The notes beneath the pieces are model-generated. The model did no database searches, had not been told where the DNA came from, and saw only the letters and a list, made by a program, of their open reading frames with translations. From IMG/VR virus record IMGVR_UViG_2061766007_001501: a stretch of DNA of 64,000 nucleotides; one strand, given 5' to 3'. This document shows positions 19,585-58,225 of this stretch, piece by piece (position 1 is the stretch's first letter; each line of letters opens with the position of its first letter). This DNA is from an uncultured virus (IMG/VR IMGVR_UViG_2061766007_001501) (lineage: Duplodnaviria; Heunggongvirae; Uroviricota; Caudoviricetes). A program made the translations under genes and the position numbers.

Positions 19585-19664
19585 CTGTAAAAAATCAGCG
19601 GGGAAAATTACAGCTTCCCCTGTAAAAATCAGCAGGGGAAAATTACAGCTTCCCCTGTAAAAAT
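19585..19664 (+). repeat. Tandem repeat of about 35 bp (two full units plus a partial) containing TTACA-N8-TGTAA
   Basis: ctgtaaaaa(a)tcagc(a)ggggaaaattacagcttccc repeated; left side cut by an N gap. Confidence 0.85.
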
Positions 19665-19840
19665 ATCGTCTGAAAATTGAACAGTTGCCGCATGAAAACA
19701 GACGAACAGAATTTTCTGAAAATTTTTTTATTTTTTTTTGAAAAAAAGAAGGGAAAACAGAATTTTCTGTAGAATTGTTACTACGTAACAGAATTTTCTG
19801 TTACACAAAAACCTAACAAATAAAGAAAGAAGGGTAAAAA

Positions 19841-20773
19841 ATGAGACGGGAAGCAAGGCAGGAAAGAACAGTGGATATCGCAAACGTTGCCGGATATCAT
19901 CACGGCAATAGTCAGTACGATGAATTTTTAGTATTTGCATCTGACCGTCCGAACAAGGCGAATCGCAACTACACGTTGCAGAAAGACGGAACGCTTCCGG
20001 CCATGATCGGGATTGAGTTTGAGACGGAGTGCTGGGGAATCACGAACAGCACAATCTATGCAAACCTTCTCCGCGACGTCGTGTTTAAAGTCTTTCCGGC
20101 AAACCTTTGGAAGATTGAATCTGATTGTACGCTGGACGGCGGCGACGTCGGCGCGGAGTGCATCACTCAGCCGATGACAAAAGCTTTCATCAGAAACCAC
20201 TATCGCGACTTCAAAGCTATGTATCAGTATTTCGAATCATTCGGAATCAGTGCTTCCCGTTCCGGCAATTGCGGACAGCATGCGCATATATCCCTAACAT
20301 GCTTCGGACGGACAAAAGCTGCGCAGGATGAAGCGATCAGAAAGCTGTTCTACATCGTTAACCGCCATTACGATCTGATTTGCGCACTGCTTTACAGACG
20401 CGCGGACAGACAACATTGGTGCGGACGCATGGATTATACGGAAGCCTGGACAATGGACTTGAATAACATGAGCGGCAGTCACGGGAATGGATGCAATTAC
20501 AGCCATTACAGCAACGGCAATATTGAGCTTCGCATCCCGGGCGGTCAGTTAGATTATCCCTGTTTCAGAAACACAATGGAAAGTATCTTCCATCTGATTG
20601 AAGCATCGAAAAGCATCAGCCGGAAAGATTGCGATGATATCACGAAAATTTTTGCCGGATGCAATCAGCATGTATTTGATCGTCTCCGTTCTTACTGCTT
20701 TGAGCGCGGAACAATCAGCGCGGAACAGCTGGAATCAATCCGCGCAACCGTGAAAACGGTTGATTTCAGATGA
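19841..20773 (+). CDS. Putative amidoligase (COOH-NH2 ligase type 2)
   Basis: IGIEFE, ESDCTL, GAECITQPM, CGQHAHIS, NIELR motifs. Confidence 0.8.
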   Translation: MRREARQERTVDIANVAGYHHGNSQYDEFLVFASDRPNKANRNYTLQKDGTLPAMIGIEFETECWGITNSTIYANLLRDVVFKVFPANLWKIESDCTLDGGDVGAECITQPMTKAFIRNHYRDFKAMYQYFESFGISASRSGNCGQHAHISLTCFGRTKAAQDEAIRKLFYIVNRHYDLICALLYRRADRQHWCGRMDYTEAWTMDLNNMSGSHGNGCNYSHYSNGNIELRIPGGQLDYPCFRNTMESIFHLIEASKSISRKDCDDITKIFAGCNQHVFDRLRSYCFERGTISAEQLESIRATVKTVDFR

Positions 20774-20883
20774 AGCAAAACGGCCGCAATTGCGGCGGCC
20801 GTTTANNNNNNNNNNNNNNNNNNNNNNNNNNNCGCTGTAAACGGCTGAAAAAGCCGAATAAAAGATGAAAGAAGGATATTCCA

Positions 20884-21225
20884 ATGACGAACAGCACAAT
20901 CATTCTAAACGAATCATTCAGACTGATGAAAGAAGGCGTCTTGTCCGGGTCCGGTCGCTTTGTACAGATCGACGGCGAAAACGGCCCGGAAACAGTAGAA
21001 TTGCCGGAAGCTATTCACACGTTCGCGGCATGGAAGGCGCGCGGTTATATCGTCCGTAAAGGCGAACACGCTATAGCCACTTTCCATGTATGGAAGTATT
21101 CAGACCGTCGCCGCGCTGATGCTGAAGAAAGCGAAACGGACGGCGAGCAGGAAAACGGCGGGCGTTGTTTCCTAAAAAAGTCGTTTTTCTTCAAAGCTTC
21201 TCAGGTAGAAAAAATTACAGCGTGA
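20884..21225 (+). CDS. ArdC N-terminal-like ssDNA-binding protein
   Basis: HTFAAWKARGYIVRKGEHAI...FFFKASQV matches the TFxxWxxxGxxVxKGE pattern. Confidence 0.7.
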   Translation: MTNSTIILNESFRLMKEGVLSGSGRFVQIDGENGPETVELPEAIHTFAAWKARGYIVRKGEHAIATFHVWKYSDRRRADAEESETDGEQENGGRCFLKKSFFFKASQVEKITA

Positions 21226-21296
21226 ACCGTAAAAACTCCGGCCCGTTTTGCGCGGGCAGGCGGGCCGGATAAAAAATACATTGGAGGTTGTAAAAA

Positions 21297-21494
21297 ATGA
21301 GCATCGGAAAAAACGTGTACTTCATCCCGTCCCTGAGCGAAAAACCAATCAAGGGAAAAATCGTAAAAATTCACACTACTTGCTGTAATTTTCGGGAAAT
21401 AACGATCAGAACTAAATCGGGCAATGAATACACCGGAACAGCTAATCAATTCTCGATCGGATATCCCGCCATTTGCAATTATTGGAGGTGCTGA
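21297..21494 (+). CDS. Hypothetical protein
   Basis: GGAGG SD inside the palindrome, ATG at 21297. Confidence 0.55.
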   Translation: MSIGKNVYFIPSLSEKPIKGKIVKIHTTCCNFREITIRTKSGNEYTGTANQFSIGYPAICNYWRC

Positions 21495-21645
21495 AAATGC
21501 TGTGTGTTCGTTTCGGTAAAGTATGTTTTCAAGTGTTCAATCGTGAGCGCGGGCGCTGGGAGTATATCCGTTTTGAGAAGTGGCTAAACATGCCAGAAGG
21601 TGCCCGGAAAAAGTACGATTATTAATTACAAGGGAGGATGTAAAA

Positions 21646-21843
21646 ATGAAAACTTGCCGCAAGTGTGGATCTGAAATCGTAAACGGGCGAAACGGCTGTC
21701 AGTTGCTCGAAGATATTTGCTTCGATTGTAATGGCGGCCATCCACATTATCCGCCGCCCGTCCGGATTGATTATCCGGAATCCATGGATTATCTCGACTG
21801 GATTGAAGGCAAATGTTTATCAATGGGTTATATGCCTGAATAA
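21646..21843 (+). CDS. Small Cys-rich hypothetical protein
   Basis: MKTCRKCG...CFDC; SD inside the palindrome. Confidence 0.6.
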   Translation: MKTCRKCGSEIVNGRNGCQLLEDICFDCNGGHPHYPPPVRIDYPESMDYLDWIEGKCLSMGYMPE

Positions 21844-21865
21844 TTTACAAGGGGGATTGTAAAAA

Positions 21866-22051
21866 ATGATTATCAATGACGTTGCCCATCTCATGACATC
21901 ACCGTTTATCGTTCGCCGTTCCGACGGTGCTATCCTTTACGACACAACGCAGCTTCATTGCGATCTTCCGCCGGATGTCGCCATATTGGAAATAAAATCT
22001 ATCCGTTCCGTTTCGTTTCCGAATTATCCCGTGATTATCTTTGACGTCTGA
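21866..22051 (+). CDS. Hypothetical protein
   Basis: 61 aa; SD inside the palindrome. Confidence 0.55.
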   Translation: MIINDVAHLMTSPFIVRRSDGAILYDTTQLHCDLPPDVAILEIKSIRSVSFPNYPVIIFDV

Positions 22052-22063
22052 GAGGTGATAAGA

Positions 22064-22705
22064 ATGTGTGTGATTGCCGTTTCGCCTGCCGGATGCAGGC
22101 AACCGAAAGAGAAAGATTTTCGCCTGATGTGGGACCATAATCCGCACGGTGCCGGGTTTATGTGGTGCGAGCATGACAAAGTATATATTCAAAAAGGGAT
22201 TATGTCGTTTGATGATTTCATGGACTGGATAAAATGCCAGCGATTCACGGCTGATGATCCTGTTGTATACCATTTCAGAATCAGTACGCAAGCCGGAACA
22301 GGGCCGGAAATGACACATCCGTTTCCGTTGTCCTCTGATCCTGACGAACTGATGAAAACAACGCCGCGCCCGTGTGATATTGGCGTTGCTCATAATGGGA
22401 TTATCCGGTTAACGTCTGACCCGAATGAATCGGTGTTTTCTGATACAGCGCTATTCATCCAGAAGTACATGACAAAAATAATCCGCTCACCCAACGACCT
22501 GGAATCAGAAAAAACAATCAACACGATTGATGCACTCGCCATGTCCAAGTTCGCTTTACTCAGAAATGACGGGCAGATCTTCACCATCGGCAAATTTTAC
22601 AGGCAGCCCGGTAAATTCCTGGTATCAAATGAATTTTACAAACCGGTTAGTAATTATTCCGGATGGTCCTATAACTACTTCAAAAATTTACATGTGGAGG
22701 TGTAA
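22064..22705 (+). CDS. Class II (Ntn) glutamine amidotransferase
   Basis: Starts MC; NPHGAG, HFRIST, THPF, AHNGII, SDT motifs. Confidence 0.9.
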   Translation: MCVIAVSPAGCRQPKEKDFRLMWDHNPHGAGFMWCEHDKVYIQKGIMSFDDFMDWIKCQRFTADDPVVYHFRISTQAGTGPEMTHPFPLSSDPDELMKTTPRPCDIGVAHNGIIRLTSDPNESVFSDTALFIQKYMTKIIRSPNDLESEKTINTIDALAMSKFALLRNDGQIFTIGKFYRQPGKFLVSNEFYKPVSNYSGWSYNYFKNLHVEV

Positions 22706-22708
22706 AAA

Positions 22709-23490
22709 ATGAATAACTATCCGGTTTATAAAAAGTGTCCATTATCCCGTGTTTCCCGTCGCCGATTCCATTGGAGCGACGGGGAAACATCCCTGAATGA
22801 CAACGGAATCAGAATCATAAAATCCCACAATCTCCCGTACTGCTACATTTTACAGAAATTGCACGTTCTTATTAATAATCGCTGGTGTCCGGTTGAATAC
22901 AGCCATATAAAAGGCGACACATGGGAAATGATTATATGGCATTTATGAAAGAGGTGTAGAAAATGAAATATCTGCAAGTTCCTGCCAGCCTGGATCAGAA
23001 ACAATTATATCATCCGAAAAGAACAAGCAATCACGGTTATTCAAAAAAGATTCCTAACGGTTATTACCTGATAGCGCACGAGCTTTTGACCGCTTCAGAA
23101 TGTAAACGCATCAACGCTCCAGTCGAGCTCTTAACACCTGTTGAAATAAAAAAGACTAAGACATATTGGTGCTTCGGCGCCCGTTTCCAGTGTGAATAAT
23201 TTACAAAGGAGGATGTAAAAATGTTCTTCAGCTTCATGGTCTATATTGACGGCGGGACAGATCACGACGGGAACGACATCATGATGAAAATTGCCGTTCC
23301 CGCAAAGGATGAACAGGACGCGCGGGATTATGTGGCCGGAAACGGCGAGATTATCGCCGTGCGTGATGTATCGGATGAATACCGTATCAGCGCATCTCGG
23401 GTATATGACGCGCTGGAAAAAGCCAATTTCACGCAGCACGAAATAGACTTCATTGTCCGGACACTTCAAAGAACAGAGATAGCACGATAA
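22709..23490 (+). other. Three small hypothetical genes (22709-22948, 22963-23199, 23221-23490)
   Basis: Each has an SD and a TGTA(A/G)AAAA(A)TG-type start context. Confidence 0.65.
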
Positions 23491-23514
23491 AAAAACACAT
23501 GGAGGTATGTAAAA

Positions 23515-23883
23515 ATGAAAACTTCAGAAACAGCACGCGAGATTTCCGCGATCATTCTTCAACAGCTCGGTGGCAGGCATTTCCTGGTAATGACCGGCAG
23601 CAAAAACCTCGTCTATGGAACCGATGACAATTACCGCGATTTTCTACGAATGAGCCTACACAAAAACGCAAGCAAGGCGAACCGTCTGACAATCTACTAT
23701 AACGCTGGCATGGATGAATATAACATGGTTTTCGAAAAAATCACACTGCCGCGCTGGTGCCCGAAACAATTTAAATATTCAGACTACAAACAAGAGACCA
23801 TAAAAGAATACAACGGCATTTACTTCGATCAGCTCCAGGAGCTTTTCACAGAAACAACCGGTCTGCTGACCAGCCTGTTTTAA
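23515..23883 (+). CDS. Conserved-looking phage early protein
   Basis: ILQQLGGRHFLVMTGSK...KANRLTI...DEYNMVF pattern. Confidence 0.6.
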   Translation: MKTSETAREISAIILQQLGGRHFLVMTGSKNLVYGTDDNYRDFLRMSLHKNASKANRLTIYYNAGMDEYNMVFEKITLPRWCPKQFKYSDYKQETIKEYNGIYFDQLQELFTETTGLLTSLF

Positions 23884-23913
23884 CCAAAATATTTACAGAA
23901 GGACGTGTAAAAA

Positions 23914-24645
23914 ATGAAATACCTTACACCCGGCGGTTCCCGTTTCACGCTCTACTCTTCCATGCTGGATCAGTCGCACTTGCTTGTCGCAGGTGCGACC
24001 GGCTCCGGTAAATCCGTTTTGATGAACAGCCTGATCAGCACGGCACTGCTGGACAGTCCCGCCGCCGCTCGACTTGTCCTGCTCGATCCGAAAATGACGG
24101 AGCTGTTCCAGTGGGAAAAACTCCCACATACAATCCGCTACAGTTTCGAACAGGATGAAATGATAAAGGCCCTCCGCGAAACGATAGAGATCATGGAGTC
24201 CCGTTTACGGCACCTCCGGACCATGGGCGAAAGACTCTGGACGGGCGCACAGATCTATGTGGTGATTGACGAACTGGCGGACCTGCTGACCACAAACAAA
24301 GTCGAAGTCACGCCGCTCTTGCAACGTATTATGCAGCTGGGCCGGGCGGCCGGAATCCACGTCATAGCAGGCACACAATGCCTGCTGGCGTCGATCCTGC
24401 CCACGCCCATCAAAGTCAATTTTCCCGCCGTCGTTTGTCTCAGAGTCGCAACAAAACAGCAATCCCGCTTTATCTGCGATAAAACCGGCGCGGAACAGTT
24501 TCCGGACCCGAAAACAGCCGGAAAGGCGCTGGCGTTCTTCCGGACCGGCGCGGACATTAAACAGTTTGAGGTTTACGCTGTTCCGGAATCGGAACAGAAA
24601 CGGCTCGTTTCCTGGTGGACGGGAACAGAATCGGTTATTGGATGA
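23914..24645 (+). CDS. Stand-alone FtsK/SpoIIIE-type ATPase domain
   Basis: HLLVAGATGSGKS, LLDPK, VVIDELADL, LGRAAGIHVIAGTQ; no membrane domain. Confidence 0.9.
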   Translation: MKYLTPGGSRFTLYSSMLDQSHLLVAGATGSGKSVLMNSLISTALLDSPAAARLVLLDPKMTELFQWEKLPHTIRYSFEQDEMIKALRETIEIMESRLRHLRTMGERLWTGAQIYVVIDELADLLTTNKVEVTPLLQRIMQLGRAAGIHVIAGTQCLLASILPTPIKVNFPAVVCLRVATKQQSRFICDKTGAEQFPDPKTAGKALAFFRTGADIKQFEVYAVPESEQKRLVSWWTGTESVIG

Positions 24646-24659
24646 AAGGAGAATTTACA

Positions 24660-26077
24660 ATGTATTACGTAATTTATGATACTGTTTCCGGACGTTTCCG
24701 GCGCGACTTCCCCGGTTTCCTCGCCGCGTTTCGTTTCGCTCATCAACTGGAACAGACAACCGGGATCAACGCTTGTCTGTCATACGTTTTCCGGCACGGA
24801 AAAAGCGTATCCGTTTACCAGCGCCAAGCCGCCACGGTGCCGGTCCCACAAACACAACTTGCATGGAATTAAGGAGGATTTGAAAATGTTCTACGGTTCT
24901 TATGTTCTCAATGGCGAAAAGCACGCTGCAATCTATGACTCTTGGGATTTATGGCACCGCGACACATTCTGTCCGCTTTGCGAAAAAATCACCGTTATTC
25001 CATTTGAAACGCACGGAAAATCCTATGCTGACCGGCGCGAATCCGTCCGGGAAACGGCGGTTGAATGGTCCAATTGTGGCGAAGCGTGGCCGCTGTCATG
25101 GGGCGAAGTGCAGACCATTGTGGACTGGTTCTATCGCATGGGGAAACGCTACGGCCTGCTGTCGGAGTTCCGCGAAAACGGGCTTTGCTGAACACGATTC
25201 AGTCAAAAAACAGATTCAGAAATTACAACGGAGGATGTAAAAATGGACAATCAGGAAGTATTTGACAAGCTCAGTGATATCGAATGTTATCTGTTTTATG
25301 AAATCGACAATCCGACCCAGAACACAGCCAACATCGACCCGGAAAAGCTTAAAGCGTTCCACAATGCCATCGACGAAGCCCTGCAAGCATGGCACGATCT
25401 GACCGGCTGCACGCTGATGCACTGATCCGTTGCAATCCAATAAAATCCGTTATAAAATAAGCAAAAACAGGAGGAAAAAACAATGAAACGGACCTATGGA
25501 AACGAAAAAACCAATCTCACCCTTTCTGGAAAGGCCTTGGACTTCTACAACATGGCCGACCCGATCACGATCATCGAAGAAGAACAGGAAAACGGCGAAT
25601 ATCTCTATCAGGTCCTGTCCGGTCGCGATCTGCTCCATGACGGACTGATGACTGAATCTCAGCTCATCAAGTGGCTTGAAGATGGATATAATGAAGCAAT
25701 GACAGAGTGCTAAATATGACCGGAGAACACGCCAGTATGCAAAACATGTTTGAAGTATAAATCAAACATGAATATAATAAAAAAATATGGAGGAAATCAC
25801 AATGAAAAAAGCTGATGGGATCATTACAACCACATTTGAAACAGACAATGAAGACTTCTATATCGACATTGTAGAGCATAAAACCGGAGATACCCAATGG
25901 GACGTGTGGTTGTACCACAAGGATATCTGCGTCAAAGAATTCGTCATCGGCAGCGCCAGAAGCAATGGCGAAACGTTGGAATCTATTCTGGAAGAAATGG
26001 AAACTTATCTGTACGAATCAGGGAATGACGGACTGGACTTCTTCGATCTATATGAAGAAAGATACATGACAGAATAA
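24660..26077 (+). other. Five small hypothetical genes (24660-24872, 24886-25191, 25243-25425, 25483-25713, 25787-26077), several acidic
   Basis: GGAG(G) SD sequences and co-orientation with the island. Confidence 0.65.
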
Positions 26078-26085
26078 TCTACTCC

Positions 26086-26108
26086 GACCGGCTCCGGCCG
26101 GTCTTTTT
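26086..26108 (+). terminator. Intrinsic terminator closing the island
   Basis: gaccggc-tccg-gccggtc followed by ttttt. Confidence 0.75.
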
Positions 26109-26407
26109 ATACCCTTTTTTCCGTCCGTTCCTGCCCGTTCTGTGCCGTTTTAATCCGGAGCGGTAGTTTCAGTCCAACCCATGCCAATCGGCCCGTTCCT
26201 GCCCGTTCTGCGCTGTTCCGGGCGGTGTACGTTTGAACGGTCCAGAGCCGTTCCAACAGAAAAAGCAACCTGCTCGCGTATTAAGGTATTATTATTATTT
26301 ATAACGTACATTTAATATATATATAGTGTACGATTATAACGAATAATATATCCTACATCGCGGGCAGGTTGCTTTCTTGTATTTTGCGCCATTCCGGCGT
26401 ACTCGTG

Positions 26408-26977
26408 TCAATCCGTTTCGTCCGGCTCCGGCAGTGCGTCTATAATGCGTTTCCGGGCTGCTTCTTCATCCAGGTTTTGCAGCGGATTGTTCGGCGTGAC
26501 AACAACCTCAGTGGTATCTGTATATCCGTAATGGTTCTTACCAAGGAAGATCAGATTTGGCGGGGCGGCCTTCCCGTTCAGCATGTAATCCTCCCACATT
26601 TCCTCGATAAAATTGTATGCTTTTTTTATCAAGTCTAAGCTTGCACTGTTTATCGTTTTCCCTATCGTCCCTGCCTTCCATGTCCAGAGCGTTTTTCTTG
26701 ACACGCCCAGAGCGTTAGCGAGACCAACAATACCTGGTTTCATATCGTTTTCCGCGCATCGCCCCAGATACCAGTTAATTCTGTCCTGCACTTCTTCCGG
26801 CTTGTCCATATCGACAGGCGGAGCATTAAACGATGCCATTGCGAACGATATATATTTAGCGTTATCGCCCGGTTCAACATACTCCTGACCGAAGTTGGCA
26901 AGATCCGGACGGTTTCGTTTCTTTTTCTTAACGATATCAACCGCCTGTTCATCGGATAATCCGGTTTTGTTCGTCAC
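26408..26977 (-). CDS. terS: Terminase small subunit
   Basis: KPGIVGLANALGVSRKTLWTW HTH, LIKKAY, IFLGKNHYGYTD. Confidence 0.8.
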   Translation of the reverse strand: MTNKTGLSDEQAVDIVKKKKRNRPDLANFGQEYVEPGDNAKYISFAMASFNAPPVDMDKPEEVQDRINWYLGRCAENDMKPGIVGLANALGVSRKTLWTWKAGTIGKTINSASLDLIKKAYNFIEEMWEDYMLNGKAAPPNLIFLGKNHYGYTDTTEVVVTPNNPLQNLDEEAARKRIIDALPEPDETD

Positions 26978-27153
26978 GTTTCAATCGACTCCTTTCGTAT
27001 TGTTCCCGTTTCGCACTAATCCTATCACATTTCGCACAAAAACGCCACTTTTACGGTGCCTGCCATCTGAACGTCCGTTTTCTCACGTTTCAATCCAAAC
27101 GGGCCAATTTACCCCGTTTTGTGCCATTCTGCGCGTTTTAATCCAACTTGCCA

Positions 27154-27876
27154 TCACCTGTTCTGTTTCTTTGCCATATACTTCTGATATTCTGCTTCGG
27201 TGTAAAGGTGATCCGGCGGGTAATGGGTGTCAATCCAGAGTTCAAATCCGTGGCAAGCGGCGCGGATAGAGAACCAACGATCTTCCCCGCGAAAAGCGTT
27301 CAGGATGTTTGGGACGCGTGTATAGTTTACTCCCGCTTCGAGGACCTTACGCTTGACAAGCGTACATGCGCCGGTCATACCGCACTGATAGACGCCGGGC
27401 GTTTCCCATTCGGGCGGGTTTTTGGAATACTGATCGAACATCCATGCATTGCACCAGCGGTAACGATCCTGCGAGACAGAAAAGAACAGTTCCGAGATGA
27501 TGTCCTTATCCGCTTCGAGCAAGGCGGTCAGGGTCATGGGATGCAGCACGAGGTCGGTGTCAATCGAGAACCAGTAATCGTAACCAATATCAAGGGCGTA
27601 CTCTATGGTTTTGTTCCGGAGCATTTCCATGGCGGTCATATTGGATGCTGTCCAGAGATGGTCGTTATGTGTTTTCGAGTACGCCTCGCCCGTATCGCAA
27701 ACGACGTAATGGTCAGATGGATCAAGGTATGGAATCAGTTCCGGGCAGTTGTTGATCACGAAGTAGGTATCGACCTGGTATCCGCCCGGAACGATCAGGT
27801 TTGCGATGCTTTCCCGATACTCGCGGAAGATTTTCGGTTCCTGTCTGGCGGGAGCTGTAATAAGGACTTTCTGCAT
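27154..27876 (-). CDS. GT-A fold glycosyltransferase
   Basis: DYWFSIDTDLVL, GMTGACTLV, GEDRWFSIRA. Confidence 0.85.
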   Translation of the reverse strand: MQKVLITAPARQEPKIFREYRESIANLIVPGGYQVDTYFVINNCPELIPYLDPSDHYVVCDTGEAYSKTHNDHLWTASNMTAMEMLRNKTIEYALDIGYDYWFSIDTDLVLHPMTLTALLEADKDIISELFFSVSQDRYRWCNAWMFDQYSKNPPEWETPGVYQCGMTGACTLVKRKVLEAGVNYTRVPNILNAFRGEDRWFSIRAACHGFELWIDTHYPPDHLYTEAEYQKYMAKKQNR

Positions 27877-27879
27877 GGG

Positions 27880-28483
27880 TTATATTTCCCCTTTCTTATG
27901 CTGATCGGACAGGCTGCCCGGTCGCAAGTAGTTGTAGTAATACATCGGCATTGCGGACCACAATCCAACGGGGTGTTTTGCGATAAGGGAATCCAGGAAG
28001 TGCAGATCTGAGCTGTACGGAGCGTTATCGAAACGCATGTCCCCGATAAACCCGCGGCGCCAGCAGTGTCCGGCGGCCATTCCGAGATACTTTCCGGGCG
28101 GTGCTGCGCGGTATCCGACGTGCCGCCAGATGATTCCGAAATNNNNNNNNNNNNNNNNNNNNCCGAACGATATCATATAACTGCTGGAACACGAACTCAT
28201 GCAGCCACCAGTCGTCATCGTCCAGGAAGAGAATCCATTCGCCCCGTGCGATATCGAGACCGGCGTTGCGCGCCAGTCCGTCCCGCCGTTCACGGACGGA
28301 AACGACACGGGCTCCGCGGCCCTGAGCGATACGGGCGGTATCNNNNNNNNNNNNNNNNNNNNNNNNNNNNNNNNNNNNNNNNNNNNNCTGAAGCGATTGG
28401 GACGCGCAGCTGTCGAGCGCTTTTCCGATACGTTCCGCGCCGTTATGGGACGGGATAATAATACTGAAAAAAGGATTATCCAT
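27880..28483 (-). CDS. GT2 family glycosyltransferase, spans N gaps
   Basis: FSIIIPSHN...ARNAGLDIARGEWILFLDDDDW. Confidence 0.85.
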
Positions 28484-28487
28484 GCGA

Positions 28488-28826
28488 TCACATCCGATCT
28501 ATCAGTCCGCGTTCTTCCGTGGCGGCCCTGTTTGATGTTTTGATAGTGTTCCATATATGGCTTACGGATATACCGGTCCGGGCGGAATAGTCCTCTACGG
28601 TGTGCAAGTCGCGTCCCCATTCCGTTGTGTAATACATCCGCATGATTTCCTGTTCCGCCTTGCTGAAACGTTCGAGCGCCCGGCGGCACGCTTCCCATTG
28701 TTCACGGTTAGACAGGCTCATTCCGGACGGGTCCGCATCCGGACGGGAGTAATAGAACCGCCACATATGGTTACCTACTGCGTCAATCCACGGTTTTGTC
28801 AACTCCGTCACCTCCGGTTTGTGCAT
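28488..28826 (-). CDS. Possible RinA/ArpU-like late transcriptional activator
   Basis: ALERFSKAEQEIMRMYY...GISVSHIW sigma4-like pattern; upstream of terS. Confidence 0.4.
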   Translation of the reverse strand: MHKPEVTELTKPWIDAVGNHMWRFYYSRPDADPSGMSLSNREQWEACRRALERFSKAEQEIMRMYYTTEWGRDLHTVEDYSARTGISVSHIWNTIKTSNRAATEERGLIDRM

Positions 28827-29036
28827 GCTGAACTTCCTCGCATATCATCCTGTGCAGCCGCTCGCAGACTTCACGGTTTTTGCAGGACACAATGATATTG
28901 CGTATTGCGGTTCCTGCTGTGTCGTCTGCGTAGTTCCATCCGTAGTGACCTGCGGACGACAACGAAGCCATAACGTCAATCTCCGCGCATCTGTCGCATA
29001 TCGAAAACGGCAACTGTAATTTCACTTCCGTATGCT

Positions 29037-29681
29037 TCATCCGCCCGCCCTCTTTCTCAGCGCTTCATACGTCTTCTCGTTGTACTCCGCCTGTCCCAGA
29101 TGCCCGACCTTCACGCGGCTGTCGCACAGCATCCTCACGCCCATCTGTCCGACGCGGTAACAGAAGCTCAGATCCTCTCCGCACCAGGGATACTGGCTGA
29201 ACGGTGGTCCGAACTCATTCCATACGCGCCTGATTAAGTCCACGCTGGTCATCACGAACCCGAACCCGCTCCCGGCGATGTCAAACAGGCTGTCCTTCGG
29301 ATACGGATCGAACCGCGTCAACCGGTTTACAGGCACGTCATTTATCATCGCAGGCGGCTTGATATCTTTGTAAATCACCGGTTCGCATTTCTCATTCCGT
29401 CCGAAGAAGATCCCGCAGACATATTCCGCGCCAGTTTCGTCCATGTCCGCGCTGAGTCGTTCCATGGCGTCCGGATCGAACCGCATATCGCTGTCGATCC
29501 ACAGAATCCTGTCCGCGCCCGCTTCGATAGCGTCGGCGCAGATCAGGTTGCGTGAGTCATAAATCATGCTGGACACCTTGAAATTGATATGTGTTTCCCC
29601 GACTCGTTTCATTCCCATCAGGCTCGATACAAATCGGGTATGAATCATGTCCATGCACGGGATACCGATCATTGTTTTCAT
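29037..29681 (-). CDS. GT-A fold glycosyltransferase, paralog-like to 5610-6249
   Basis: SRNLI, DRILWIDSDM, GSGFGFVM, GEDLSFC, VGH. Confidence 0.85.
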   Translation of the reverse strand: MKTMIGIPCMDMIHTRFVSSLMGMKRVGETHINFKVSSMIYDSRNLICADAIEAGADRILWIDSDMRFDPDAMERLSADMDETGAEYVCGIFFGRNEKCEPVIYKDIKPPAMINDVPVNRLTRFDPYPKDSLFDIAGSGFGFVMTSVDLIRRVWNEFGPPFSQYPWCGEDLSFCYRVGQMGVRMLCDSRVKVGHLGQAEYNEKTYEALRKRAGG

Positions 29682-29918: not shown

Positions 29919-31030
29919 TTACGCGAACGTCCGCACCGGCAGGAGCAGCTGCACACTGTTTGTGTTATCCTTCGGCACCGCAACACACGGGGACGTCGGC
30001 GCGTTGAACTTGAAGATCACCTGTTCCCCATCCATGTTCTTCAGCATATCCCGGATATAGTTGCTGTTAAACGCAATGTCCAGTCCGTCTCCGTGCGTGG
30101 ACACTTCCATCTCTTCCTCCACGTCGCCAATCTCCGCGTTACTGCTGATTTTTACACAATCCTCTGTAAAACTCAGTTTAATCAGGTTGTTCTTTCCCTC
30201 CCTCGCCATCAGGCTGGCCCGTTCGATGGCGTCCGTCAGCGCCGTAACGTCCGCGTTCACTTCGGTCTTAAACGTTTCGGGCAGGATGCGTCGGTAGTCG
30301 ATATACTCTCCCGCCAGCAGCGAACCGACCATTTCAATCGCACCGAACCGGCACATCATCCGTCCATTGCCGAGCGTCAGCAGGCAGTCCTCGTCCGTGC
30401 TGTTCATGGCCTTGCTCATCTCGTTCAGCACCCGTCCGGGAATGACCGCGCTGACATTCTTCTGTCCGTCCGGAATCGCGTACGCACCCGCCGTCTTTTG
30501 CATCGCCAGTCGGAACCCGTCGAGCGTCACCATCCGCATTTCATCCGGGGTAATTTCTACAAGCCCNNNNNNNNNNNNNNNNNNNNNNNNNCGTCCGTGG
30601 CGATGGCGAACGATACGTGATTGATCATGTCCTTCAGTTTCGCCTGGGGTACGCTCACCTCGTATCCTTCAACCTCAGCCACATCGGGATATTCCTTCCC
30701 GGCGATCACGCTCAGTTTGCTCCTGCTTTTCTGGCAGCGGATGGATACGCTGTTTCCGTCCGTCTCCATCCGCACGGTTCCGTTCGGCAACTTCCGCACC
30801 AGCTCCGCGAATAACTTTCCGGGCAGGATGGCGGTCCCGTCCTCTTCCGCAGAACACTCACCGTGCCAGCGGATCGTGAACGACCCGTCCGAGCAGGTCA
30901 GCGTGACACGATTGTTTTCGGTTACAAGATACACGCCGTCCAGAATCGGTTGCGTCGGTTTCGACGCCAGCGCGCGGGTTACGATGTTCAGTCCTTCGAG
31001 TAAACTTTTGTGTTCGATTGTCAGTTTCAT
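29919..31030 (-). CDS. dnaN: DNA polymerase III beta sliding clamp, spans an N gap
   Basis: PILDGVYL, LPGKLFAELVRKLP, TLDGFRLA, LLAGEYIDYRRILP, IAFNSNY, LLLPVR. Confidence 0.9.
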
Positions 31031-31073
31031 GAGAATTGATCTCCCTTCACATATTTTTTGTCGTTTTTTATGC

Positions 31074-31551
31074 CGGTGTACGTCGGTGTACGGTCGTTTT
31101 TGGACACCGTACACCAAAATGCGCCCTGCAAGCCTTGATTTTCCTACACGGTGTACGAAATGTACGTCGTGTACGGTGTTTTTTTACGCTTACGCGCGTG
31201 AGTGTGCGTAAACCCTATGTTTTCTTCTCTCTAATATAGGGTATATATTTTCCACACCGTACACCGTACATTTCGTACACCGGAACCCTGTTTTTGGTCA
31301 TTTTTTACCCCTCTTTCTGTAAAATCCTGTTTTTGCCACCGTACATTTCGTACATTTCGTACACTGATACTCTTTGTTCAGTACTCTGTGTATACGCACC
31401 GTACATTTCGTACATTTCGTACACCGTACATTCTGTCAAAGGTCAAACACGCAACTCTGCGTTTTTGTGACCGTGCATTTCGTACATTTCGTACACTGGC
31501 TTTTTCGGCGTTTCCGTACCGTTTCCGCCCTTACCGTACACGACGTACACC
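31074..31551. repeat. Iteron-like direct and inverted repeat cluster (candidate replication origin)
   Basis: gtacatttcgtaca at about 31266, 31341, 31401, 31473 (variant) and inverted gtgtacgaaatgtacg at about 31151, around an AT-rich core. Confidence 0.65.
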
Positions 31552-34619: not shown

Positions 34620-35059
34620 TGCTGTCCCGTTCCTTCCTGTAGATATGCTTTTACGATCCTGCCGAGTACGTCATAAGCGCACGGAAGTGCGATGCCATTC
34701 CCCCATAGCTTGTACTGCGCTGAATCGCTTCCTTCCGCCCCGTCGCACCACCAGTCTGGGAATCCCTGTAATCGCGCACACTCCGTCGGTGTCAGGCGGC
34801 GCAATACATACTTTCTTGCGTCCTGTTCCATGTTGTCCTCCTGTACTAAATCTCTTGCGTCCTTGTAGTCTCTGTGAGCTAAGGTGCTCGATACCCCCCC
34901 CCTCACAAATTCCNNNNNNNNNNNNNNNNNNNNNNNNNNNNNNNNNNNNNNNNNNNTTTCTATCACCGGGAGCATGTTGTTGAACGCGTCCTGCCCGGTA
35001 TAACTCCCCGGATGACTGTTCGCGCACAGCGCGCCGGTAATTGTCGGATATACTTTCAT
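34616..35059 (-). CDS. C5 DNA methyltransferase C-terminal polypeptide (TRD modules plus terminal conserved motifs)
   Basis: RRLTPTECARLQGFPD...YKLWGNGIA. Confidence 0.85.
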   Translation of the reverse strand: MKVYPTITGALCANSHPGSYTGQDAFNNMLPVIEXXXXXXXXXXXXXXXEFVRGGVSSTLAHRDYKDARDLVQEDNMEQDARKYVLRRLTPTECARLQGFPDWWCDGAEGSDSAQYKLWGNGIALPCAYDVLGRIVKAYLQEGTGQQ

Positions 35060-35065
35060 AAACGA

Positions 35066-39516: not shown

Positions 39517-40397
39517 TTTTTACGGCATCTCCTGTAATTTCCCGTGTTTGTCCTCTTTCCATACCTTTCGCTTTTCTTCGTACCGCAGATTCCGGTCCAT
39601 CTCGTTCAGCTGCAGGATTTCAAGCGCCCACAGCTTGATCTTGTCGTGCTTGCCGCCCGCCGTCGAATACCGCTTAATCGCTTCGCACAGATCACAGATT
39701 CGTGCGGAAATTCCTACATAGTATGGAGCGCATCCGAGCGGTGGTTTGTCAGAAATCTCAACTTTCTCACGATCTACTGTTGTTTCTGTTTCATTTCTTC
39801 CGTAATTGAGGATGGCATCGTAACGTGATTTTCTTATCCCAAAAGAGCACTTCGGACATTCCAGACGCACTGCTGTTCCGGTAGTTACTACCACTGTTTT
39901 CTTTTGCATTTCCGTTCCGCACTCCGGACAAATGTACCGTTCCATCTCATTTCCCTCCGCACATGGCAATGACCATCCCATACGCTTCCTGCTTCGTGAA
40001 CCCGGCCCGTTGCAGTTCTGTGTACACCGCAAACATCTGCTGCGCCACATCCTGCGCTCTCTGATACTTTTCCGCCAGCTCCGGGTCAAACAGCTCTGCT
40101 TTCAGACTGTTCAGGATATCCGATGCCAGTACCGCTTCTTTCGGGTTCTTCTGTTCCGGTTTCGTTTCGTGTTTTTTGTTATTGCTCTGTTCCACTTTTT
40201 ACACCTCCGCATGTAATTATTCAGCCGGTTCCGTATGTCCCGACGCTGCCTGAATCTGTCCCATATAACACTTCATGATCTGCTTGCGACACTCATCGCA
40301 CGCCCAACCGATCCAGTCAGGCAAAACCAGTACGTGCAATTTGGCGTTGTGCCTGCCGCACAGTTCGCATGTCCCGTACTTTTCAAACGGTTTCAGT

Positions 40398-53037: not shown

Positions 53038-53040
53038 TTT

Positions 53041-53382
53041 TCACGCCTTGCCTTCTTTCTCCGCGCTCTCGATCATCCACCCAAGGTAAACCTGCGCTTT
53101 TTTCAGGTCCTGCACGCCGTCCTTTTTCCGCCACCGGCTCACGTATTTCAGCACGTTTCCGCAGCAGTATTCCGTGAATCCTTCCGGCGTCAGTTTATCC
53201 CGGATGTAGTCGATGACTTCGATCTCGCCCTGATAATGTGCGGGCTTGTTTACCATATCTTTTCTTTCTTCTTCTTGCGGCGGTAATGCTCTACATCCGC
53301 CTGTTTCTGAGGTGCAATATCCGTTTACGGATTTATCGCAATCCGCAGTACATTTATTCCTTGTATCGGCAGTTTCTTTCAT
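53041..53382 (-). CDS. DUF3310 (T7 gp1.7 nucleotide kinase-like) protein
   Basis: DMVNKPAHY...GNVLKYVSRWRKKDGVQDLKKA. Confidence 0.8.
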   Translation of the reverse strand: MKETADTRNKCTADCDKSVNGYCTSETGGCRALPPQEEERKDMVNKPAHYQGEIEVIDYIRDKLTPEGFTEYCCGNVLKYVSRWRKKDGVQDLKKAQVYLGWMIESAEKEGKA

Positions 53383-53537
53383 TCCGTCCTGTCCTTCCTC
53401 ATTTCATCAATATCCTTCATCATCTGTTTCGGTGTGACCTTGATCGCATGCGTCCGAATCCACCAGACCAGAATCATCACTACCCCGACCGCGCCGGAGA
53501 CAAACCCGGCCAGAAAATACCAGATCATGTCGTCACC

Positions 53538-54613: not shown

Positions 54614-54834
54614 TCTTCATGTCCTGAATACACTGTTCAAGCGTCCCGATCATGCTCAGTTATCCTCCGGCTTATCGTTCCTATGCAGCCATTTCTTGAA
54701 ATCCTGGCTGCATTTCAGACAGAGATTGATCGGAATGCTGGACATAACAGATCCCCGTTCTTTGATATCGAACTTCGGATATCCGAATCCGGGCGTCCAG
54801 TTATCGTCACAGACTTTCTTGCACTTGTCGCATC

Positions 54835-55530: not shown

Positions 55531-55602
55531 CGTCTCGCTCCTGCATGTTGTCTCCGGATAGGGCATCACCGTACCGCTTTAATCCGGAGGAAACGTCAAC
55601 GT

Positions 55603-55911
55603 TCAGTTCTGTTCTATCGGTACGCTCTCGATCCCGTAAAACACTTTCTTGCCCTGTTTCAGCGCCACTCGCAGTTCGCGTTTCGCGCCCTGGCTGCTTC
55701 GCCATCCGCACAGCATCACGATCCCGTCCGCCGCTTTGATCATCTCCGCGTCGATCTGCATATAATCTTCATATTTCAGCCCCTGCGGATGGCTTGCAGG
55801 GTTCAGCACTGTATGCCCCTTCCATGTGCTGAGGTACGATTCCGCCGCGTCGAACTCCGCCTTATACGTATCCATCCGGGATGAGATCGGCCCGGAAATG
55901 TAGAGGATCAT
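55603..55911 (-). CDS. DUF4406 / nucleoside deoxyribosyltransferase-like protein
   Basis: YISGPIS...VLNPA...GWRSSQGAKRE. Confidence 0.8.
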   Translation of the reverse strand: MILYISGPISSRMDTYKAEFDAAESYLSTWKGHTVLNPASHPQGLKYEDYMQIDAEMIKAADGIVMLCGWRSSQGAKRELRVALKQGKKVFYGIESVPIEQN

Positions 55912-56849
55912 TCGTCGCCACCGTCCTTCTGTTGCAGGAAGTCGAACAGGTCCGGCTGCCGTTCTTTCGTCGCTTCCTTCACGTTCGCCACCGCCTGCCG
56001 GTAATACGAATCCTTCAGTTCGATGCCGACCGCCCGCCGGTTCATCTTTACGGCCATGTACGCTTCCGATCCGATTCCCATGAACGGGGTCAGAACGATG
56101 TCGTTCTTGTTCGTCCACAATTCGATCCCGCGCCGGATGACCGTGAGATTAAGCGGGCAAATGTGCCGTTCATCTTTTTCTTCCCGTGCGCTCTTATATT
56201 GCAGCGTGTCAGAAAGTTCAATATCCGTCCAGATCGGACTGGCGTACTTCTGCCAGACCCGCACAGGGAATGTCTCATCCGTGTGCGTTATCGGTTCGTC
56301 ATTGTTCCCCGGCTTCCGCATCGTTACCAGATAATCAGCAAGTCCCTGCCTGCACATTGCGCTGTCTTTCTTAATCTGCTTATGCAAAAGACCAAGGGCT
56401 TTTGTTCTTTGCATTTGAACGACCGGATCTTTAAAAATGCAGACTTCGCTGTGATAGATGAACCCGGCGTCTTGGAATGCTTTAATCAATTCCCCACGGA
56501 AATCCTTTATGCCGATATACCCGTCCCGCTCCTTGCTCGTCGGCAGGTTCATGCAATGGAATGAAACCAACCGACCAGGCATAATCACCCGGTATAGCTG
56601 CTCAATAATGAACCGGAAATGCTCATCAAACTCCCCATCGCTCCGGCAGTTGCCAAGATCCCTGTCGCTGTTTGAATAACAATATAACTGGGCGAATGGC
56701 GGACTGAAGATCGAATAGTGAATGGAGTTGTCCGGAATCCCCTTCAACGCCTCGCAACTGTCTCCGCAGTACAGGGCATAATCTTTCCCGATCTCCTGAC
56801 TTTTTACATTGATATCTGTAATATTTACGCTGATTCCGTTACGATCCAT
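55908..56849 (-). CDS. N4/N6 DNA methyltransferase (beta class)
   Basis: IFSPPF, HICP, VLTPFMGIGSE. Confidence 0.9.
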   Translation of the reverse strand: MDRNGISVNITDINVKSQEIGKDYALYCGDSCEALKGIPDNSIHYSIFSPPFAQLYCYSNSDRDLGNCRSDGEFDEHFRFIIEQLYRVIMPGRLVSFHCMNLPTSKERDGYIGIKDFRGELIKAFQDAGFIYHSEVCIFKDPVVQMQRTKALGLLHKQIKKDSAMCRQGLADYLVTMRKPGNNDEPITHTDETFPVRVWQKYASPIWTDIELSDTLQYKSAREEKDERHICPLNLTVIRRGIELWTNKNDIVLTPFMGIGSEAYMAVKMNRRAVGIELKDSYYRQAVANVKEATKERQPDLFDFLQQKDGGDE

Positions 56850-58225
56850 GTCGGAACCTCCATTCTGTCAAACGCATAGTATTCGTCCACATCCCTCGTG
56901 GTCTGTCTCAGATCGCTTTTCAGAAACTCTTTCGTGAACGCGATCAGTTCATCTGTCATCCGTTCCGCGTCCCGCTGCTTCCTGGCGATGTTTTCCTTCA
57001 CGGCGCCTTCCGCGTCACTGATGATAATATACACATCCACCGGCTTATCCTGCCCGTACCGCCAGCACCGGCGCACGGCCTGGTAATATTGCTCAAAACT
57101 GTCCGACAAACCCACAAAGATTTCGATATGCGCGTTCTGCGCATTGATGCCAAAGCCCGCGATAGAAGGTTTGCTTACCATAACACGATATTTGCCGTTC
57201 AGAAAGCCTACAATGCCGTTCTCTTTCTCCTCAAGGCTCATACTGCCCTCGACCTCAACTGCCCCCCCTATGGCCTTTGTAAGCGCCTTGCTTTCGTTGT
57301 TCAGGTCGCACCAGACCAGCACCTGTTCCTCCGTGCCATTGGCGATCTCCGCCGCCCGCGCCACCCGGTCGTCCAGGCTGTTCCGTCTCGCACTCCGCCG
57401 TTCCAGCAGGGTTTTTCCGACTGGCGCAAACATCATCATCTGCCCGTCGATCAGTTCCGTCCCCTTGCTTTCCACGCTTTCCTCGTGCACCCGCAGTTCA
57501 GGCAGGTCGTATCCGTCCTGTTCGTATCCGATGTCCTGCGGCCGGTTGAAGCAACACGCCCATCCCGCGACCCACTCGAAAAACTTCTTTTCCGCGTGCC
57601 GTTTCAGCCGCCAGTTCTGCGTCTCTCCGCCGTCATGTACAAAGAACGTCGCCAGCATTTCCGTCTGCTTCATTACGCCGAGGAACTGCGCGTGTGTGCC
57701 GAGTTCCATGAAGTCGTTCGGAGCGGGCGTCGCGGTACAACACAGCTTGTACGGCGTTTCCTCAAACAGCTCCTGAATCATCTGCCTGAACTTGCCTTCC
57801 TTGTGCTTGATGATGCTGCTCTCGTCTAGTACGATCCCTACGAATTGCTTTGCGTCAAAGTGCTGAAGCATTTCGTAGTTTGTAATGTTCAGCCCATTCA
57901 CGCACTGTTCCTGATTTCTTACAACGTTGACTGTAATTCCGCAGGCTTCCCCTTCCCGTTTCGTCTGCTGCGTCACCGCCAGTGGCGCCAGGATCAGGAT
58001 CGGCTTTCCGGTATGCTCGTGGACCTTTTGTGCCCACTGAAGTTGCATTCTCGTCTTCCCACTGCCGCAGCTGGTAAAGATCGCGCATTTCCCTTTCCGC
58101 AACGCCCACCGCACCACGTCATTCTGCCAGTCGAACAGCGCAGGGTTCCGTTCCTCGCAGTCGAATCCGCACGCCTGGACGCTGACCTTCTTCTGCTTCA
58201 AAAACTCCTGATAGTCCATATCCAC
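56825..58225 (-). CDS. SNF2-like SF2 helicase coupled to the methyltransferase
   Basis: GSGKT, VLDESS, TATPAPN, QAVRRCWRYGQ. Confidence 0.9.
   Translation of the reverse strand: MDMDYQEFLKQKKVSVQACGFDCEERNPALFDWQNDVVRWALRKGKCAIFTSCGSGKTRMQLQWAQKVHEHTGKPILILAPLAVTQQTKREGEACGITVNVVRNQEQCVNGLNITNYEMLQHFDAKQFVGIVLDESSIIKHKEGKFRQMIQELFEETPYKLCCTATPAPNDFMELGTHAQFLGVMKQTEMLATFFVHDGGETQNWRLKRHAEKKFFEWVAGWACCFNRPQDIGYEQDGYDLPELRVHEESVESKGTELIDGQMMMFAPVGKTLLERRSARRNSLDDRVARAAEIANGTEEQVLVWCDLNNESKALTKAIGGAVEVEGSMSLEEKENGIVGFLNGKYRVMVSKPSIAGFGINAQNAHIEIFVGLSDSFEQYYQAVRRCWRYGQDKPVDVYIIISDAEGAVKENIARKQRDAERMTDELIAFTKEFLKSDLRQTTRDVDEYYAFDRMEVPTWIVTESA

Follow-up and report, generated by a model that had tools for sequence, protein, structure and literature searches.

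A TTACR-N8-YGTAA palindrome at gene-cassette junctions of an accessory island in gut phages

The accessory island and its palindrome

An uncultured virus of the class Caudoviricetes (IMG/VR record IMGVR_UViG_2061766007_001501) contributes the 64,000-nucleotide stretch of DNA analyzed here, hereafter the window, which carries many copies of the palindrome TTACA-N8-TGTAA. Scans of its open reading frames (ORFs) against PHROG and Pfam identify the window as a prophage, and the sequencing runs that contain its DNA are ruminant and other animal gut metagenomes. The copies are concentrated in an accessory island that lies antiparallel to its neighbors (Table 1). The first gene of the island encodes a 310-aa ligase-fold protein; the others encode a small ArdC-N-like protein, a 213-aa MC... 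protein, an FtsK/SpoIIIE-like ATPase and about a dozen small ORFs. The AlphaFold model of the 310-aa protein (pLDDT 82) is matched by Foldseek to the carboxylate-amine ligase YbdK and to glutamine synthetases (E 5e-5, TM about 0.4). The model of the 213-aa protein (pLDDT 81.5) matches the glutaminase domain (N-terminal nucleophile (Ntn), class II) of GlmS and EgtC with TM up to 0.60. The two proteins are referred to below as the ligase and the amidotransferase.

The window contains 12 perfect copies of TTACA-N8-TGTAA, all of them where a first-pass annotation, made from the sequence alone, had placed them. In 100 dinucleotide-preserving shuffles the expected number was 0.02 and the maximum 1, in agreement with the earlier estimate of well under one copy by chance. 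When one mismatch is allowed, 24 sites are found against 0.97 expected, and 12 of these are one-mismatch copies. The eight one-mismatch copies listed earlier are all real, but four others, at 22636, 25824, 35740 and 41914, had been missed; the site at 23495 indeed has two mismatches and reads ACACA...TGTAA. The spacing is as strict as had been claimed: all 12 copies have N8, and none of the other 20 spacings between 0 and 20 occurs. The single arms occur 53 times (TTACA) and 65 times (TGTAA). The interval from 19.6 to 25.9 kb holds eight of the 12 perfect copies and seven of the 12 with one mismatch. A scan of the window, which includes 45 masked N runs, found no copy with at most one mismatch below 19608, consistent with the report that the structural region at 1–12 kb is free of the motif.

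In about ten window copies the spacer holds the Shine-Dalgarno sequence (SD), and the start codon follows TGTAA by 2–3 nt. This arrangement, which the first-pass annotation had described, occurs in seven of the 12 perfect copies and at 21276, 39520 and 23495, and it includes the minus-strand gene starts at 39516 and 40195. In several copies the upstream gene ends at a TAA that belongs to the right arm or directly precedes the left arm. The flanks are AT-rich, with W in 95% of copies at -1 and in 95% at +1. A limited full-text literature search turned up no published report of a TTACA-N8-TGTAA motif.

Upstream of the island, copies of the motif stand in tandem 35-bp repeats (Table 1). Because the TGTAA at 19587 keeps the same 35-bp register, the masked run at 19562–19579, one of the 45 N runs, probably conceals the left arm of a third tandem copy. 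In a scan of the minus strand, every 35-bp unit between 19600 and 19657 gives an intrinsic-terminator-like hairpin with a T run behind it. The units also lie directly upstream of a near-consensus promoter, TTGACA-18-TACAAT (19507 to 19478), of the divergent helix-turn-helix (HTH) gene. Copies of a second palindrome, CAGAATTTTCTG, are probably operators of the island's own promoter. A related palindrome, AACAGGAAAACCTGTT (ACAG-N6-CTGT), is seen at the same place in the metagenome locus L160.

Table 1 Coordinates of genes and motif copies in the window
Feature	Position (nt)	Strand	Remarks
Packaging and head genes	below about 12 kb		
Serine recombinase (resolvase/invertase), 18568-19146, and XRE-type HTH, 19146-19448	18568..19448	-	divergent from the island
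Tandem 35-bp repeats	19580..19660		perfect copies 19608-19625 and 19643-19660; right arm at 19587; between divergent HTH gene and island
Second palindrome CAGAATTTTCTG (ACAG-N6-CTGT)	19707..19800		3 copies vs 0.24 expected; just 5' of first island gene
Accessory island	19.8-26.1 kb	+	between two minus-strand blocks, antiparallel to both
First island gene, 310 aa, phrog_16683	19841..20773	+	glutamine-synthetase/YbdK-like fold; in every motif-bearing relative
Small protein with ArdC-N-like region	20884..21225	+	PF08401, E 1.5e-5
Composite junction	21215..21293	+	one-mismatch copy 21215, GC-rich hairpin 21241-21257, one-mismatch copy 21276 enclosing SD of gene at 21297; joint 21223>21277
Perfect copy enclosing SD	21626..21643	+	ATG 21646; joints at 21634, 21646, 21653, 21623
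Perfect copy enclosing SD	21845..21862	+	ATG 21866; nucleotide similarity to L026 stops here
Class-II (Ntn) glutamine amidotransferase-fold gene	22064..22705	+	213 aa; in every motif-bearing relative
Perfect copy enclosing SD	23201..23218	+	ATG 23221; joints at 23193, 23217, 23223, 23232
Two-mismatch copy (ACACA...TGTAA) enclosing SD	23495..23512	+	ATG 23515; joint end 23511
Perfect copy enclosing SD of FtsK/SpoIIIE-like ATPase gene (23914-24645)	23893..23910	+	
One-mismatch copy, ATG (24660) within spacer	24655..24672	+	joint end 24659
Perfect copy enclosing SD	25223..25240	+	ATG 25243
Replication and DNA-modification gene block	reaching down to about 26.4 kb		
GP3_package-type small-terminase-like gene	26411..26977	-	converges on island end
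Perfect copy within sliding-clamp gene, outside island	30152..30169	-	
One-mismatch copy enclosing SD of CHC2 zinc-finger protein (start 39516)	39520..39537	-	
Perfect copy enclosing SD of gene starting with GTG at 40195	40199..40216	-	
Perfect copy in overlap of methyltransferase (55911-56849) and helicase (56828-58225) genes	56804..56821	-	
Perfect copy within helicase gene	57919..57936	-	
Integrase	61615-62733		cI-like and cro-like genes adjoining

Cassette junctions at the motif

Contigs from four runs of four studies, sharing 20–27% of the island words, were compared with the window over 20840–26100. The sample comprises 14 joints with 28 ends, all counts being among the joints listed and two joints of the kind 'same length, diverged' being left out; copies with at most one mismatch were counted, plus 23495. 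Relative to the window, the joints are deletions, insertions, replacements and one reordering. Sixteen of the 28 ends lie within 10 nt of a copy, compared with a mean of 2.8 for random placement (maximum 12 in 20,000 trials; p <= 5e-5), and therefore the motif marks single-gene cassette junctions. Eleven of the 14 joints touch a copy, five of them at both ends. That the motif marks the sites of single-gene cassette differences between related phages is thus firmly established; the first-pass annotation had proposed looking for breakpoints of gene gain and loss in the motif.

Individual joints illustrate this. Joint 21223>21277 links two copies that bracket a hairpin, and joints 21300>23511, 21634>23193, 21653>24659 and 22711>23232 each lead from one motif or gene start to another. 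The deletion 22704>22960 drops the gene 22709-22948 across a shared GAGGTGTA[A/G]AAAATG. At joint 22899>23217, 291 other letters stand between the two ends, and one sample carries a 232-nt insertion exactly at 23913/23914, between the A run of the motif and the ATG. In the reordering, one contig joins 24620 back to 21623. Joint 25469>25789 has an 8-nt microhomology at the ribosome-binding site (RBS) and no motif. Gene content and order differ among other relatives as well: relative to the island of L026, the window has an extra gene right after copy 21845, and the 23515-family gene precedes the FtsK gene in the window and follows it in the relative G002.

Conservation among related phages

The palindrome is conserved in related phages, and a pattern search of viral contigs picked out ones that carry it many times. 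G001 (53 kb, with terminal repeats) has 10 copies, eight of them within 3 kb, and G002 has 19, of which 15 lie within 4.7 kb; the reversed-pattern control gives 0 in both. In the complete 57.9-kb phage G005, TTACR-N8-YGTAA occurs 31 times (control 0), and 27 of these copies lie between 6961 and 14055. In every relative available as a whole record, the dense motif region is the homologue of the window island, antiparallel to its neighbors and beside terS or terL. In L005 and L007, terS is directly divergent from the island, and in G005 packaging or other genes are the divergent neighbors. Proteome comparisons of the window, G001, G002 and G005 find only the ligase and the amidotransferase in common, and the structural and packaging genes of G005 are unrelated to those of the window.

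A ligase alignment scan of metagenome contigs yielded 65 loci, many of them only 1–3 kb long and a few of them duplicates of viral contigs (L167, L200, L204, L213, and L195/L196, which are like G005). Among the 58 whose ligase homologue reaches 33% identity or more, at least one perfect copy is present in 50 and at least three in 38. None of the seven loci with only distant ligase homologues has a perfect copy. Arrays of 5–10 copies stand directly 5' of the ligase gene in L160, L162, L164, L178 and L215. L164 has seven copies at an exact 41-bp period, L160 eight copies, L162 five copies at 51–53 bp and L215 ten; the 35-bp tandem repeats of the window at 19580–19660 are the local version of this array. 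In L175 (824-920) and L177 (1117-1152) motif copies abut at 18 bp start-to-start, which gives a TGTAATTACA junction. L005 (= G008) has both island enzymes in its island at 7400-12901 with no perfect and 14 one-mismatch copies, and is a lineage with a degenerate or relaxed motif.

A scan of viral contigs with the pattern TTACA-N8-TGTAAAAATG gave, among the matches listed, mostly single chance matches, only L046, L072 and L026 being real. A nucleotide search with the island found no match in 50,697 phage records, and a protein search with the ligase gave only two distant matches of 25–28% identity.

The motif is specific to phages. Related prophages were found in two host genomes (G003, G004), a Faecousia metagenome-assembled genome and Pseudoflavonifractor phocaeensis, in which five of six perfect copies and the single perfect copy, respectively, fall in the prophage contig. 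With at most one mismatch allowed, the two genomes contain 37 and 42 matches, of which 16 and 7 are in the prophage contigs, compared with 51 and 50 for the reversed control. Hence the enrichment over both shuffled and host sequence that the first-pass annotation had asked about is present. A host transcription-factor regulon that uses the motif is unlikely because there is no enrichment outside the prophages in these two genomes. Upstream of the islands of the Faecousia and Pseudoflavonifractor prophages (L016, 9200-9450; L017, 3050-3300), dense iteron-like repeats of GTAGTACCGTAG and its variants occur together with an AT-rich run. The L017 prophage, carried by a cultured Pseudoflavonifractor strain, has a degenerate motif.

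Position of the copies relative to genes

Sixty-four perfect island copies from seven genomes were classed by a crude ORF rule, under which the two tandem copies of the window fell to a spurious ORF. The SD is enclosed and a start follows in 16 copies, 11 lie immediately 5' of an SD (TGTAAAAAGGAG...), 22 are intragenic, four stand at the 3' end of an ORF and 11 are otherwise intergenic. RBS enclosure is therefore a minority arrangement among the relatives. The earlier description of the motif as enclosing ribosome-binding sites of early genes thus holds for about ten window copies, but early expression is unproven, the motif belongs to an antiparallel accessory island, and only 16 of the 64 copies in the seven genomes are so placed. 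In G001 the motif is usually upstream of the SD, and in G005 and L007 two to four copies per intergenic region are interleaved with GC-rich hairpins, which also adjoin copies in L046 and at 21241–21257 of the window. The 23221 gene family has its SD inside the spacer in the window and downstream of the motif in L026.

Copies are also found in conserved coding sequence. The amidotransferase gene of the window has one-mismatch copies at 22597 and 22636, and its stop codon is the TAA of the perfect copy 22688-22705. The 564-nt amidotransferase gene of G002 contains four perfect and two one-mismatch copies, one perfect copy again providing the stop codon. Most of these G002 copies lie at positions where the orthologues have no copy and other residues, which argues for selection on the nucleic-acid motif itself.

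DNA-level or RNA-level action

The degeneracy of the motif was sampled in nine islands, which gave 65 perfect copies, 70 with a single mismatch and 27 with one mismatch in each arm. Thirty-five of the 70 single changes affect the innermost pair, 17 the outermost pair, nine position 2, eight position 3 and only one the C:G pair. The degeneracy is symmetric between the arms and leads to the consensus TTACR-N8-YGTAA. On the sense strand, 51 of the 70 single changes break the pairing of the arms and 19 keep it by wobble; the commonest change, T to C in the right arm (19/70), makes an A.C mismatch. Compensated double variants number 7 of 27 against about 1.8 expected, four of them being TTACG...CGTAA, and are compatible with a DNA or an RNA reading. 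The isolated RNA hairpin has a predicted energy of -1.4 to -2.7 kcal/mol (mean -1.8), and in a 98-nt context the mean C-G pair probability is 0.46 for the sense and 0.52 for the antisense strand (63 sites). An Rfam scan of 19000–27000 gave three weak matches, all far below the gathering scores and none on a motif copy.

The spacing of neighboring copies up to 130 bp apart (n = 62, including repeated intergenic units, which are non-independent data) is most strongly periodic at 10.5 bp, with a phase of zero (R 0.40; p about 0.001 by simulation over 8–14 bp); a period of 3 gives R 0.22. This periodicity favors sites on one face of duplex DNA. Together with the symmetric degeneracy, the broken pairing and the weak hairpin, it suggests that the motif acts at the DNA level. 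A sigma-70 promoter reading of TTTACA or TGTAAAAAT is ruled out by geometry, the arms being 8 nt apart, and by a promoter scan of 19300–26500, which gave 16 sites where 12.1 were expected, the motif defining none of them.

Possible functions of the motif

In the reading that is tentatively favored here, at rather less than even confidence, the copies would be double-stranded DNA sites of a putative dimeric factor and would double as short homology for cassette exchange. TTACR-N8-YGTAA with its AT-rich flanks is a repeat specific to one phage module, a mobile accessory island that holds the glutamine-synthetase (GS)-fold ligase, the class-II amidotransferase and variable small genes, runs antiparallel to its neighbors beside packaging genes, and is carried by otherwise unrelated temperate phages, probably of ruminant-gut Oscillospiraceae. 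The repeat forms a tandem array upstream of the first gene and dispersed copies at gene boundaries and within genes, and each copy would be bound as duplex DNA by the putative sequence-specific dimeric factor. In such a tightly packed island the free 8-bp spacer may house the SD, so that a bound factor would cover both DNA and translation start. The junction of about 25 nt, W-TTACA-SD-TGTAA-AAA-ATG, recurs before many genes and could serve as short homology, which would allow single-gene cassettes to be deleted, inserted, replaced and reordered there.

Several observations weigh against this reading. In the flanks, the choice between A and T depends on the coding strand and does not mirror the symmetry of the arms: of 40 copies, 35 have A at +1, whereas at -1 there are 23 with A and 15 with T. 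This A bias on the coding strand, which holds within the island and beyond it and agrees with the earlier remark that the flanks mostly follow transcription, is the chief argument for a strand-specific role, at which it hints. Because the two sides are alike outside the islands (A in 13/19 and 12/19), the bias is attributable in part to coding-strand composition and to the A-rich spacer between SD and ATG. Helical phasing is not universal, since spacings of 18, 28–29 and 35 bp occur in L175, L177, L178 and the window, and the non-independent units in the spacing test and the crude ORF rule behind the position classes have to be set on the same side. The half-site centers are 13 bp apart, which is long for an HTH dimer. 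Among gene starts, seven of the nine that bear a motif have a joint end within 15 nt (14 ends), but so do four of the seven without a motif (four ends); because motif-less starts are also hit, the motif's own share is not separable from a general tendency of breakpoints to lie at gene boundaries.

The search for a reader protein bears on the same side. No candidate was found among the proteins common to all motif-bearing genomes, which are the two enzyme folds only; proteome comparisons of the window, G001, G002 and G005 gave no XRE or other DNA-binding protein in common. A pair of XRE-type HTH and resolvase genes is present in the window, G001, L160 and L162, but it belongs to one sub-lineage and is absent beside the islands of G005, L007 and L005. 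ParB is rejected as well, PF02195 being found in none of five records and no such annotation among the window ORFs. The ligase and the amidotransferase are both enzyme folds by structure model and were set aside as DNA-binding readers, and profile searches with them against PDB sequences and NCBIfam found nothing. The resolvase, considered as reader or recombinase, is found in two of five records, and the complete G005 has none. The FtsK-like ATPase, which the window, G001, G002 and L026 encode, does not occur in the 20-kb loci L046 and L072 or in the complete G005, the records with most copies. The small terminase is an unlikely reader because the terS types of motif-bearing phages are unrelated to one another.

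The same data allow an RNA-level explanation, which is possible but improbable. A 5-bp AU-rich stem with an 8-nt purine-rich loop, often holding the SD, would be the target of an RNA-binding protein or an endoribonuclease, or would work unaided; the hairpins would set translation, processing or stability cistron by cistron, and the array would be a leader or sponge in the style of CRISPR repeats or ToxI. Such an element would fit the close association of 27 of the 64 island copies with an SD and start (16 enclosing the SD, 11 immediately 5' of it), the flanks and T-poor spacers that follow the coding strand inside and outside the island, the two registers of the motif relative to the SD in the 23221 family, and the four TTACG...CGTAA variants among the seven compensated ones. 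No sigma-70-type promoter is predicted between the window array and the first island gene, so that the array could be transcribed. However, the hairpin is marginal, most single variants (51/70) break sense pairing and the commonest gives A.C, 22 of the 64 copies are intragenic, and the 10.5-bp periodicity has no RNA rationale; no Rfam family reached threshold, and no RNA-binding protein common to the motif-bearing genomes was found. A more specific proposal of the first-pass annotation, translational control of the CsrA/RsmA type by hairpins with GGA in the loop, can be given almost no credence. It was prompted by the consensus RUACARGGAUGU obtained for CsrA/RsmA by systematic evolution of ligands by exponential enrichment (SELEX), which window copies such as TTACA-AAGGAGGA-TGTAA resemble. 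Only 18 of 40 spacers contain GGA, the loop is 8 nt and not 4–6, host genes of the two genomes scanned lack the motif, and the arms are conserved as sequence, not as pairing.

The joints at copies are also compatible with a pure cassette adaptor that has no regulatory reader, in which a shared RBS linker would permit gene swaps through short homology (host RecA, phage RecE/RecT-like functions) or a host recombinase, like pdif modules or integron attC sites. The sharing of the island by phages with unrelated structural and packaging genes, the lack of a conserved dedicated binding protein, and the exonuclease VIII-like protein and single-stranded DNA-binding protein (SSB) encoded in the window agree with this explanation. 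Nevertheless it is a doubtful one, for homology exchange would keep a contiguous stretch rather than two 5-bp arms at a fixed distance round a free spacer, and it leaves unexplained both the arrays of 5–10 copies 5' of the first gene and the copies gained in a conserved enzyme gene together with amino-acid changes. The variable spacers would block tyrosine-recombinase exchange between copies. No recombinase is common to the carriers, the integrases of G005 and the others being only 22–28% identical. The earlier suggestion of recombination sites bounding single-gene cassettes has direct support in the joints seen in four other samples, but these are inseparable from gene starts in general, and no site-specific recombinase is shared. 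The position of motif copies between the island and the divergent HTH and resolvase genes, a pair that recurs in three other records, recommends a reading as operators or stoperators for the XRE protein, or as crossover sites at which the serine recombinase acts. This is quite improbable, since the complete G005 has 31 copies, no resolvase and no HTH homologue next to the island, and the divergent neighbors in L007, L005 and G005 are packaging or other genes. Resolvase/invertase sites measure 26–34 bp, and the motif at 18 bp is much shorter. Because CAGAATTTTCTG is a separate palindrome present three times in the control region, it is the more plausible operator for the local HTH protein. Intragenic copies, arrays and uncompensated degeneracy do fit the dispersed array proposed in the first-pass annotation, but no XRE protein is common to the motif-bearing phages. 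A packaging signal, that is, cosB- or pac-like arrays wrapped by the small terminase, is more improbable still. In its favor, terS or terL is always the neighbor of the island and its upstream array, and repeated sites spaced 40–55 bp near terS recall lambda cosB; yet the motif accompanies at least three unrelated terS/terL types, and its copies are spread over 5–7 kb that include ribosome-binding sites and coding DNA.

Comparison with known repeats

Dispersed sites at promoters and within transcription units that are served by one element-encoded repressor are known from the Cluster A stoperators (L5 gp71), the conserved inverted repeats of phiC31 and the KorB operators of RK2. In contrast, no conserved DNA-binding protein accompanies the motif described here. 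The L5 stoperators are asymmetric, whereas the core of the present motif is a perfect palindrome and only the A or T choice in the flanks follows the coding strand. A recombinase beside the array in all members, as for integron attC sites, is also lacking, the resolvase being confined to two of five records.

Promoter-early stem-loops (PeSLs) of T4-like phages are, in the available excerpts of their description, short composite intergenic elements among small variable genes that end in an SD and start (PMC4122927). They are built on a sigma-70-like -35/N17/-10 promoter and a terminator stem-loop, and adjoin insertions, deletions, replacements and displaced ORFs, for which homologous or site-specific recombination was proposed (PMC4122927). 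The present motif resembles them in the rearrangements close by; in its position among small variable genes the likeness is partial, since 27 of 64 island copies stand at or directly 5' of an SD and start, and GC-rich hairpins adjoin some copies. Unlike the PeSLs as described there, it consists of an 18-bp palindrome whose 8-bp spacer is free, it lacks promoter geometry, its copies are also intragenic (22/64) and in tandem arrays, and it belongs to temperate siphovirus-like phages of a Firmicute host.

The start-associated sequences (SAS) of Cluster K mycobacteriophages, again according to the accessible text, are 13-bp repeats, GGG-N7-CCC around an SD core, located 3–7 bp 5' of non-structural gene starts; an additional inverted repeat is found at about half of them, which are termed extended SAS (ESAS) (PMC3203893). 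They are oriented with transcription, occur on genes of different families and are essentially absent from the host genome (PMC3203893). A host genome free of the repeat is a shared feature, and symmetric arms round the SD close to a start are seen in about ten window copies but in only 16 of the 64 island copies of seven genomes. However, SAS lie almost all at starts and have a conserved center, while here 27 of 64 copies are at or just before an SD, 22 are intragenic and the spacer is free. An upstream tandem array and a link to rearrangements, both present here, are not described for SAS in that text.

The 17-bp palindromes of Cluster O mycobacteriophages have 7-bp arms and a 3-bp variable center, number more than 30 per genome and are denser in one small-gene region (PMC4351075). 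As far as the excerpts of that report go, about a third lie in coding regions and a dimeric DNA-binding protein is predicted by the authors, who see few if any of the repeats in rearrangements and report no RBS association (PMC4351075). The invariant inverted repeat, the short variable center, the many copies and their partly intragenic position are features of the present motif too, but here joints fall at copies and part of the copies enclose the RBS. Because the promoter feature of PeSLs fails and the free center and intragenic copies differ from SAS, the motif is placed outside both. It is a relative of the PeSL, SAS and Cluster O repeats and a member of no single one.

Other features of the window

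Between the island end and the terS-like gene (26100–26400), two 30-nt direct repeats (26120 and 26188; 87% alike) are followed by a very AT-rich stretch between inverted GCAACCTGC... arms; this region could be an origin, a pac region or a terminator. The sliding clamp (processivity factor) at 29922-31117 (-) appears as two ORFs parted by the masked N run 30567-30591 and is probably one gene; a one-mismatch copy of the motif lies upstream of it at 31305. A DNA-modification-like gene set is distributed on the minus strand over 27157-29681, 34619-38377, 40401-41477, 53044-53382 and 55606-56849. It includes two glycosyltransferase-like and at least three DNA methyltransferase-like ORFs, a radical SAM protein, a nucleotide kinase and a nucleoside 2-deoxyribosyltransferase-like protein. 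The ORF 44638-44979 (-) matches Tad4, an inhibitor of type I Thoeris (Pfam E 3.8e-32), and represents an anti-defense gene in the early region. A transposase ORF (63129-63971, +; phrog_506, E 5e-87) lies just past the integrase, near the presumed prophage end.

Concluding remarks

Repeats at gene boundaries of phage accessory regions, namely PeSLs, SAS and the Cluster O palindromes, have already been described, with a function that is at most proposed in the excerpts available. Among such repeats the present motif is unusually tractable, because it consists of two 5-bp arms at a fixed 8-bp distance and 50 of the 58 related metagenome loci have it. Its distribution is limited to one portable module of otherwise unrelated gut phages, degenerate lineages and arrays of 3 to 10 copies provide natural contrasts, and gain, loss and replacement of cassettes at copies are directly observed. 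It is conceivable, though on balance unlikely, that the island serves phages as a gene-cassette platform, akin to an integron but of different construction, in which the array and one palindrome per gene boundary would act as a universal adaptor that supplies the RBS, ties cassettes to one putative reader and offers a crossover point between unrelated phages with no dedicated recombinase. The island shares genes with the leading regions of conjugative elements (ArdC-N-like, DUF3846, FtsK-like, and the GS-fold ligase and amidotransferase), and therefore the repeat could show how phages wire and reshuffle putative entry or anti-defense genes.

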